Origin: Opitutia bacterium
Lineage (GTDB): Bacteria; Verrucomicrobiota; Verrucomicrobiia; Opitutales; Opitutaceae
Length of the DNA: 64,000 nucleotides
Assembly: GCA_947478395.1 (NCBI GenBank)
Contig: CANJVR010000002.1
Span: 704,001 to 768,000 of the forward strand
Direction of reading: 5' to 3'
Part shown: in pieces, positions 26,605 to 27,881 of the stretch
Position numbering within the stretch: position 1 is the stretch's first letter
How the letters are laid out: the number at the start of each line of letters is the position of its first letter
Made by a program: the position numbers and the translations under genes
The notes under the pieces: model-generated
The model's database searches: none
The model's input: only the letters and a program-made list of their open reading frames with translations
What the model was told of the DNA's origin: nothing

Positions 26605-26625
26605 ATGTCACTTATTAAGTGACAT
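26605..26625. promoter_or_regulatory. 21-bp perfect palindrome, copy 1 (putative protein-binding site)
   Basis: ATGTCACTTA-T-TAAGTGACAT, just past the stop of the HTH gene. Confidence 0.75.
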
Positions 26626-26652
26626 TCCAACCGGCCGTCCCGCGGAAATTTT

Positions 26653-27018
26653 TCACGCGGGCCGGCGCTTGAGATGCACAGCGGCAAGCCACGCGAGCAA
26701 TTGCAGGGTGCGTTCGGCGTCGGGCATCTGGGTGCGCGAGGTGACAAAGGCGTTTACCCGCTGGCGGTGAAGTCCAAGCAGTCGGGCCAGATTAGCCTGC
26801 GTACCATAGCGGCGAAGGTGCGGTCGCAGTTGAGCGCGCAATTCGTTCCATAGTGGAGTCTCGCGCCCTGGACGCAGCGTAACGCCCCGCTTGGGCCTCC
26901 GGCCAATCTGAAAGGCCTTGATCGAGTGTGCCGCGTAGCTGGCGGACGCCTGAAGGATAATATCCGCGAGTTGGATGGGAAGTTCGAGCGACCGGGGGAT
27001 GATTGAAGGTTGGGGCAT
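26653..27018 (-). CDS. Small Cro/XRE-like helix-turn-helix protein
   Basis: RYGTQANLARLLGLHRQRVNAFV...MPDAERTLQLL pattern. Likely ATG at 27018. Confidence 0.75.
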   Translation of the reverse strand: MPQPSIIPRSLELPIQLADIILQASASYAAHSIKAFQIGRRPKRGVTLRPGRETPLWNELRAQLRPHLRRYGTQANLARLLGLHRQRVNAFVTSRTQMPDAERTLQLLAWLAAVHLKRRPA

Positions 27019-27042
27019 GTCACCTATTAAGTGACATGCCCC
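27012..27042. promoter_or_regulatory. Palindrome copy 2, extended to 31 bp, overlapping the HTH start codon
   Basis: GGGGC-ATGTCACCTA-T-TAAGTGACAT-GCCCC, one mismatch. Confidence 0.75.
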
Positions 27043-27084
27043 GCGCATTTCCACGGTCGGCGCTGTCTTATGAGTACGTTTTGA

Positions 27085-27105
27085 ATGTCACTTAATAAGT
27101 GACAA
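27085..27105. promoter_or_regulatory. Palindrome copy 3
   Basis: ATGTCACTTA-A-TAAGTGACAA in the divergent intergenic region. Confidence 0.75.
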
Positions 27106-27218: not shown

Positions 27219-27881
27219 ATGCCGCCTGACCCCAACGCGCAGTTTGACCAGACCGTTTTGTCGATGATCGAGCACAGTCCAGTAGGCGCGGTGCCCCACA
27301 CCCCCGCCTACCGCGACGCCCTCGTGCGACTGTACGCCACCCATCAAGTCTACGCCGACGCAGACCACAAAGACGGGCATGTGACCGTGCGCTCGCTCAC
27401 CCAGAGTGCCAGCTTTCAGGCCGCAAACGCAGAGGCTTTCGCGGAGAGCAAAATAGCCGCCGAGGCGCTGGAATCCAACGGGGCCATTTTCGATCGCTAC
27501 CTGCAATCGCGGCCCGAAGCGACGCGCGCGAAGGCCGAGAGTTTTCGGTTACGCGTAGTGGGCCGGTCGATTCATCACCGCAAACATCACGGTGCATCCG
27601 CTCCGCCCCTCGTGCATGACGCCGTGCACAGCCTTTTCTTGGTGCCGGGCGCCGGTCCTCATCCAGGACTGCCGGGAAATTATCTTTATGGCTCGGTATT
27701 CGAGGTGAACGCGACGATCACCCCCAGCCCATGGGCGATCGCCGTACACGACGCGGATGACGGTGCGGCGTTGTTCGACGCGCCCGATTTGGCGTCAGCC
27801 TGGGCCAAATTGCGCGAGCTGCAGGAAAGCGCGCCTTTTCACTTGAGCGAGTTGGCGGCGCTGGGCTTCAGGCCGAATTAA
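27219..27881 (+). CDS. Hypothetical protein
   Basis: Long ORF with protein-like composition filling the gap. No family recognised. Confidence 0.7.
   Translation: MPPDPNAQFDQTVLSMIEHSPVGAVPHTPAYRDALVRLYATHQVYADADHKDGHVTVRSLTQSASFQAANAEAFAESKIAAEALESNGAIFDRYLQSRPEATRAKAESFRLRVVGRSIHHRKHHGASAPPLVHDAVHSLFLVPGAGPHPGLPGNYLYGSVFEVNATITPSPWAIAVHDADDGAALFDAPDLASAWAKLRELQESAPFHLSELAALGFRPN

Follow-up and report, generated by a model that had tools for sequence, protein, structure and literature searches.

The question raised by this locus is why a gene for a predicted DNA-binding protein of the HTH class lies between copies of one 21-bp palindrome, and whether gene and palindromes form a self-contained local module, a mobile cassette, or one part of a system dispersed through the genome. 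The locus lies in a stretch of 64,000 nucleotides from an Opitutaceae genome; this whole stretch is referred to here as the window.

The locus and the HTH protein

The features of the locus, in order along the window, are these:

26605-26625, no strand: palindrome copy 1, a perfect 21-mer in the convergent gap with uvrA
26653-27018, minus strand: HTH gene, 121 aa, predicted Cro/XRE fold
27017-27037, no strand: palindrome copy 2, its centre 9 bp before the ATG, which it overlaps; 31 bp long with its self-complementary flanks
27085-27105, no strand: palindrome copy 3, its centre 77 bp upstream of the ATG
27219-27881: neighbour protein of 220 aa, on the other side of the HTH gene from uvrA

A preliminary description of this DNA had reported three copies of the palindrome at these positions around a 121-aa HTH ORF. 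Both the copies and the ORF are present, and the window contains no further match at up to 3 mismatches; shuffled sequences gave a mean of 0.01 matches (n = 100), and 0/100 reached 3. The finer geometry of that description also holds, namely 27 bp from the HTH stop to copy 1, an ATG whose A and T are the final two bases of copy 2 and whose G follows it, and centre spacings of 412 and 68 bp. Copy 3 lies where it had been placed, but its last base, at 27105, is A rather than T; the assembly has A at this position, while 6/6 other DNA runs have T. The placement of copy 2, 9 bp before the ATG, is the commonest site position in the family (46 sites). A scan of the locus for sigma-70 promoters and terminators found nothing, and in two RNA runs the contigs, which are at low cover, reach uvrA (both runs) and the other neighbour (one run) and do not extend to the HTH gene. 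The 220-aa neighbour itself, which has no match in Pfam, PHROGs, or PADLOC, is present in 16/18 genomes of the genus, and in several genomes besides this one it lies next to the HTH gene.

The HTH protein consists of an N-terminal helix (residues 9-35), a TLRPG..TPLWN motif, and a helical domain (55-115) with a predicted recognition helix at 85-92. Its two HTH matches in Pfam fall below the cut-off (YdaS, E 8e-5; HTH_31, E 0.11), PHROGs gives one weak match, to a regulator, and the one Rfam match is at chance level; a PDB sequence search and PADLOC give no match. The predicted model (pLDDT 73, pTM 0.57) is all helical, with a long N-terminal helix followed by a four-helix domain. A Foldseek search with this model returned weak matches (E 0.67 or more), and structural alignment gave Z 5-7 to cI, C proteins, and HNF1A, with HigA aligned as well; for the autoregulated XRE/Cro proteins, Z is 5-6.4 over 55-70 residues. 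This modest but consistent evidence points to a lambda-repressor-like Cro/XRE DNA-binding fold. No catalytic residue set is apparent, and the invariant residues look structural.

A single query retrieves 407 relatives of the protein, and a divergent profile 1,947. The family was found in 75/151 Opitutaceae genomes, in 1-8 copies each and patchily within genera; in the source genome the gene is single-copy. Homologue labels likewise put the family in Opitutaceae, 0/320 other genomes of the phylum have a relative, and NCBIfam has no match for 111 family members. The family is thus restricted to Opitutaceae and is without a Pfam or NCBIfam name. A search of 8,000 candidates between 269 and 2,000 aa long, a range that excludes 213-268 aa, yielded no fused, longer form, which is weak evidence. 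By dN/dS, which is 0.16 over 28 close pairs, the gene is under purifying selection.

Flanking sites and covariation across the family

If the palindrome belongs to the protein, it should accompany the gene elsewhere. From 175 collected loci, 24 duplicates were removed, leaving 151 distinct proteins. An unbiased palindrome scan of these loci gave 372 matches in the 112 kb near the genes (within 400 bp) versus 252 in the 646 kb farther away; a family pattern, which was derived from that scan's own matches, gave 366 sites in the 112 kb within 400 bp versus 30 in the 646 kb beyond. Where 300 bp or more is available on each side (121 loci), sites lie on both sides in 89, upstream only in 20, downstream only in 3, and on neither side in 9, so that a downstream copy is present in 92/121. 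The earlier proposal of a protein-plus-cognate-site unit is supported, with homologues flanked on both sides in 89 of these loci. Divergent loci that had been held out carry sites in 11/14 cases, some of them new variants missed by the family pattern.

Two smaller groups of loci differ in their arrangement. A subgroup of homologues whose helix contains RQA[VI]N (L078, L081, L091, L096, L101, L470) is without a flanking family site and is possibly orphaned or repurposed. At L010, L009, and L011, tandem sites occur every ~90 bp beside the gene with common flanks, a local duplication.

Covariation between protein and site was examined in the 139/151 loci that carry sites, with 121 protein columns ranked for each half-site base. 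The top column is residue 89 for base 3, residue 87 for base 6, and residue 97 for base 7, and residue 71 for the outer base. Q89 is accompanied by A at base 3 in 51/56 half-sites, and other residues by T in 667/670. With R87, base 6 is C in 523/554 half-sites (T in the 31 exceptions), versus 1/172 with non-R residues. At base 7, R97 goes with C in 192/194, E97 with G in 81/90, and Q97 with T/C in 350/366; at the outer base, Y71 goes with A in 376/434 and R71 with T in 118/154. Residues Y71, R87, N89, and Q97 of the window protein match the variant of its own flanking sites. Residues 87 and 89 lie within the predicted recognition helix and residue 97 in the loop behind it; the recognition helix and the following loop are the DNA-contacting parts of XRE proteins. 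The residue-base pairings concerned, Arg-G, Glu-C, and Gln-A, are the usual ones.

Shared ancestry bears on how these counts are read. Disjoint closest-pair contrasts are concordant in 8/8, 9/9, and 12/12 cases, which is not a tree-independent test. On the tree, 6-12 changes of the residues are needed, with 1-3 independent pairs on starred branches and 0 opposite, none significant in what is an underpowered comparison. In held-out divergent loci, R87-C is kept in 10/12 and R97-C in 3/3, but Q89-A3 in 0/3 (A is at base 4 instead); consequently, the site code depends on context. One orthologous locus exists in both states. L027, L110, and L112 have Q97 and the T/C variant, and L139 and L044 have E97 and the G variant, and all five have a common neighbour gene (79-90% identical), alignable spacers, and sites near -91, -9, and +400. 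Across this change from Q97 to E, all of the flanking sites have switched in place, and one L139 site is a hybrid.

The number of sites in a genome follows the presence of the gene. Over 151 genomes, the median is 35 sites with the HTH gene and 1 without it (Spearman 0.79), and at least 10 sites are found in 66/75 genomes with the gene versus 8/76 without. Within-genus contrasts agree in 20/21 genera having both gene states, so the co-occurrence of motif and HTH homologues, for which the preliminary description had proposed a check, is borne out. Genomes with more than one paralogue extend this correspondence: G113 has three paralogues and three matching site variants, into which 82/85 sites fall (counted by eye), and G081 has two paralogues and two variants. 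In G015, the dominant variant matches the one gene detected, and the minor variants, for which no gene was detected, are read as probable relics of former ones.

On this comparative evidence, the HTH protein would very probably bind the 21-bp palindrome directly, presumably as a dimer, and the copies over the ATG and at -77 would then repress the HTH gene itself.

Dispersed sites in the source genome

The preliminary description had treated gene and palindromes as a self-contained local module, and this is not supported, as the palindrome occurs at 34 places in the 3.3-Mb source assembly. By the analysis' own gene calling, 28 sites are intergenic and 6 lie in frame inside five conserved genes, in a genome that is 85% coding. 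The mismatch spectrum (0-4 mismatches) is 27, 7, 1, 0, 1, versus 0, 0, 0, 0, 6 for a reversed control, and has no tail of near misses. Besides the 34, there is one degenerate duplicate, at the overlap between the end of contig C6 and the start of C1. This overlap spans an extended palindromic copy; thus, the assembly broke at a site.

The genes with internal sites, named from their translations, are RlmN-like, a PxpBC-like fusion, 3-beta-HSD-like, MGDG-synthase-like (two sites), and a TPR protein. The RlmN loop is 33 aa in 6/15 relatives and 46 aa in the source genome, and G015 has a different site variant in the same loop and the same frame. In the MGDG-synthase-like protein, the loop exceeds that of four site-free orthologues by 19-24 aa. 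In the PxpBC linker, a site is at the same place in 3/4 orthologues, each time as another variant, and has decayed in G004, where the HTH gene was not found. The TPR-gene site is common to G015 and is length-neutral. Given these comparisons, in-gene sites both add length and persist or change in place. Old sites that persist fit selection for binding as well as drive. The constant reading frame of the in-gene copies was considered as extra evidence and rejected, there being only one stop-free frame per strand. Separately, the RlmN loop (L184-L199) gathers three unrelated kinds of repeat within the genus: besides the palindrome family, it holds GTAG-tagged inverted repeats in 6 genomes and heptamer-like tandem units in 2.

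The repeat unit is confined to the protein footprint, as shared flank fades within a few bases. Doublets are common (27/73 clusters in G122), but spacers from the doublets of five genomes are unrelated (best local score 22), with no conserved spacer or REPIN-like unit. The flanks within pairs show a slight direct-repeat likeness (p 0.02). Self-complementary flank extension of at least 6 bp is seen at 6/33 sites in the source genome (16/5,000 permutations) and does not recur in 39 pairs taken from other genomes.

One way to account for the dispersed sites is that the gene encodes an ordinary autoregulated XRE transcription factor and that the sites are the operators of its regulon. According to the main text of PMC12565409, a palindrome upstream of its own gene is a frequent target of an XRE protein. 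The window protein has an XRE-like fold and a site over its start codon, and 15/20 intergenic sites in the source genome lie 85-165 bp before a start, with 5.9 expected (the distance range having been set after the data were seen). However, this bias was not replicated in three other genomes (4/18 versus 3.9 expected), and the 43 genes neighbouring sites have no apparent common theme. Furthermore, 6/34 sites are within genes, 3/24 gaps with sites are convergent in the source genome and 6/24 in the three others, and downstream copies are as frequent as described above. A regulon is therefore quite unlikely.

Alternatively, the protein may organise the chromosome. MatP/matS, SlmA/SBS, Noc/NBS, and ParB/parS have tens of palindromic sites per chromosome, some of them in genes, with no need for a catalytic role; these systems are conserved and single-copy, with a sharply defined chromosomal placement. 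The HTH family is similar in having tens of palindromic sites, some within genes, and in needing no catalytic role. If it were an organiser of the MatP/SlmA/Noc type, selection would maintain and retune its sites for the benefit that binding or bridging brings to the cell. Several observations are in keeping with this: a repeat no larger than the footprint, orthologous in-gene sites that persist, with symmetrical differences between lineages even at amino-acid cost, the low dN/dS, and a mild shortage of sites near ter in 4/5 genomes, as judged from coarse skew maps. Clusters in the last quarter near the terminus number 11/63, 3/28, 5/23, and 4/73 (with 6 G122 sites unlisted and likely there), and a 603-kb site gap in the source genome spans the skew switch of contig C2.

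However, the gene is missing from 76/151 genomes of the taxonomic family, is patchy within genera, and has 1-8 paralogues of differing specificity in many gene contexts; moreover, it is flanked by its own sites. The sites lack a degenerate tail, ter exclusion is not sharp in G163, and strand bias appears in 1/5 genomes (45/59 single sites in G081; 11/25 in the source genome). We regard a chromosome organiser as rather unlikely. The related suggestion of a dispersed site with a cognate binder is supported by the dispersal and by the co-occurrence of gene and sites; placement relative to ori and ter is only mildly biased.

Two observations on replication geometry may be recorded here. On G081:C1, the orientation of sites follows the replichores and their density peaks near the inferred origin, beside one HTH gene, a pattern absent in four other genomes. 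In the source genome, dnaA (C1, 79 kb) lies off the GC-skew switches, which are on C3 at ~200 kb (minus to plus) and on C2 at ~350 kb (plus to minus).

Mobility and relation to known repeat systems

Sites on both sides of the gene had also suggested a fresh cassette inserted after uvrA, the palindromes serving as recombination ends for an unlinked recombinase. There are 82 context groups among the 151 loci (52 among the 98 with long flanks), and given these many contexts and several paralogues per genome, the HTH gene does move. Yet no empty site retaining one palindrome is found: the site or the HTH gene occurs in 0/14 uvrA orthologues with a visible 3' end, and the site in 0/15 orthologues of the other neighbour in the genus. 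The HTH gene is linked to this other neighbour at four further loci, with a looser linkage at one more. No excision joint is present in the contigs of six DNA runs covering the cassette (contigs drop rare variants), and across these six strain-level runs none of the three window sites is gained or lost. As many as 17 loci share one inherited context, and no partner gene is common to the 151 loci, the largest neighbour family occurring in 10/151. Taken together, these results do not support insertion at uvrA, and a minimal cassette of this kind is highly improbable. The lack of a conserved adjacent partner and of a PADLOC match also led to rejection of an R-M controller or toxin-antitoxin unit. 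A phage origin was rejected as well, with one weak partial match, not convincing, and no motif match in viral contigs.

Since the gene is flanked by the palindrome, 34 sites are scattered in the source genome, and protein and palindrome change together across relatives, it is likely that the palindromes make up a repeat family not described before, one associated with a binder and for which no cutting enzyme is detected. The reading that we favour, with somewhat better than even confidence, is that of a REP-like family in which the protein would bind both the flanking and the dispersed 21-mers, and sites would be spread, or rewritten to fit the resident protein, by host repair or recombination. 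The host route is inferred because no nuclease is linked to the gene. In this model, protein-bound sites might be copied to new places or converted at old ones, a weak inference, perhaps when the protein bridges two duplexes; such bridging would be permitted by the site pairs 44-220 bp apart and by the downstream copy. Against copying, it should be noted that no mechanism is visible: the spacers of paired sites are unrelated, and the shared flank is short. More tentatively, the nuclease-free HTH gene could be a minimal selfish or domesticated replicator whose protein drives both the making and the rewriting of its own 21-bp operators throughout the chromosome. In that case, a single residue change would reset the repeat family across the genome, and successive paralogues would leave layered, decaying families; this bolder form is possible, though we would not call it probable.

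The REP-like reading invites comparison with known systems. As described in the available text of PMC2817692 and PMC3733652, REP/RAYT units (REPtrons, TIRtrons) resemble the HTH unit in having a gene flanked by its own palindromes, co-evolution of gene and repeat, repeat abundance predicted by gene presence, several families per genome, doublets, and in-frame copies in loops. In contrast to the units described there, the HTH gene has a Cro/XRE fold rather than that of an HUH tyrosine transposase, and its sites carry no GTAG/CGTC tag. The repeat differs as well: it is a 21-mer rich in A+T, its bases covary with predicted major-groove residues, and it forms no conserved REPIN-like unit. The HTH unit behaves like a REPtron in genomic pattern and is not one by enzyme and tag. 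Rickettsia palindromic elements and intragenic REPs, as presented in the sections available of PMC3733652, are inserted in frame into flexible regions of conserved proteins, as here; the repeat of the HTH family is much shorter than the Rickettsia elements and has a cognate binder gene, none being named for them in those sections. Autoregulated XRE/Cro proteins, such as the lambda cI N-domain, R-M controller C proteins, and HigA/HipB, are alike in fold and in the palindrome at the gene start. They differ in that HTH sites are also downstream and genome-wide, with no R-M, toxin, or phage partner, and that the HTH protein has an extra N-terminal helix and the TLRPG..TPLWN motif.

A search of openly accessible literature, at the level of titles and abstract openings, found neither the repeat family nor its binder described. 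The portions consulted of PMC2817692 and PMC3733652 note GTAG repeats in O. terrae and do not mention this class of palindrome; the main text of PMC12565409, on upstream XRE motifs, has no match for an Opitutaceae taxon or the core motif, and PMC12306157 likewise gave no match. In the REP papers, as far as their available text goes, a transposase is the explanation given for palindromic repeat families that have a cognate gene, and some families (CGTC REPs) have no known driver. A repeat that is the footprint of a binder without a catalytic fold points to another route of repeat origin or turnover. With about 1,950 natural proteins, many orthogonal 21-bp operators, and a candidate code of four positions, the family makes it directly testable, by single substitutions, how a DNA-binding protein and all of its sites change together.

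One enzyme-driven alternative remains to be weighed, namely that RAYT/TIRYT (Y1) transposases act in trans to move the palindromes, which would be hairpin REPs, the HTH gene being an accessory or a passenger. Y1 genes are present in 131/151 genomes, the doublets and in-frame copies are REP-like, and the RlmN loop collects GTAG-tagged repeats, a type treated in the available text of PMC3733652. However, Y1 genes are about as frequent in genomes with the HTH gene (67/75) as in those without (64/76), and seven draft genomes with the HTH gene and 25-56 sites have no Y1 match, draft status meaning that this is not proof of absence. The site is found at 0/50 Y1 loci with a strict library and, as a single site, at 1/21 with a looser pattern. 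The two Y1 matches of the source genome lie elsewhere, without the palindrome, and neither a GTAG nor a CGTC tag is present in the flanks of the 34 sites. Linkage to Y1/RAYT genes was accordingly rejected, as Y1 loci are unflanked and Y1 presence does not track that of the HTH gene, and movement in trans is very unlikely. Two Y1 loci have features of their own. L017 (C5 near 142 kb) has a weak Y1 match between its own hairpins with 9-bp arms (1277-1298 and 1773-1794), unrelated to the palindrome and possibly a TIRtron-like unit. At L016 (C1 near 347 kb), the 5' region of a gene for a 325-aa Y1 protein is tandemly duplicated over about 180 bp.
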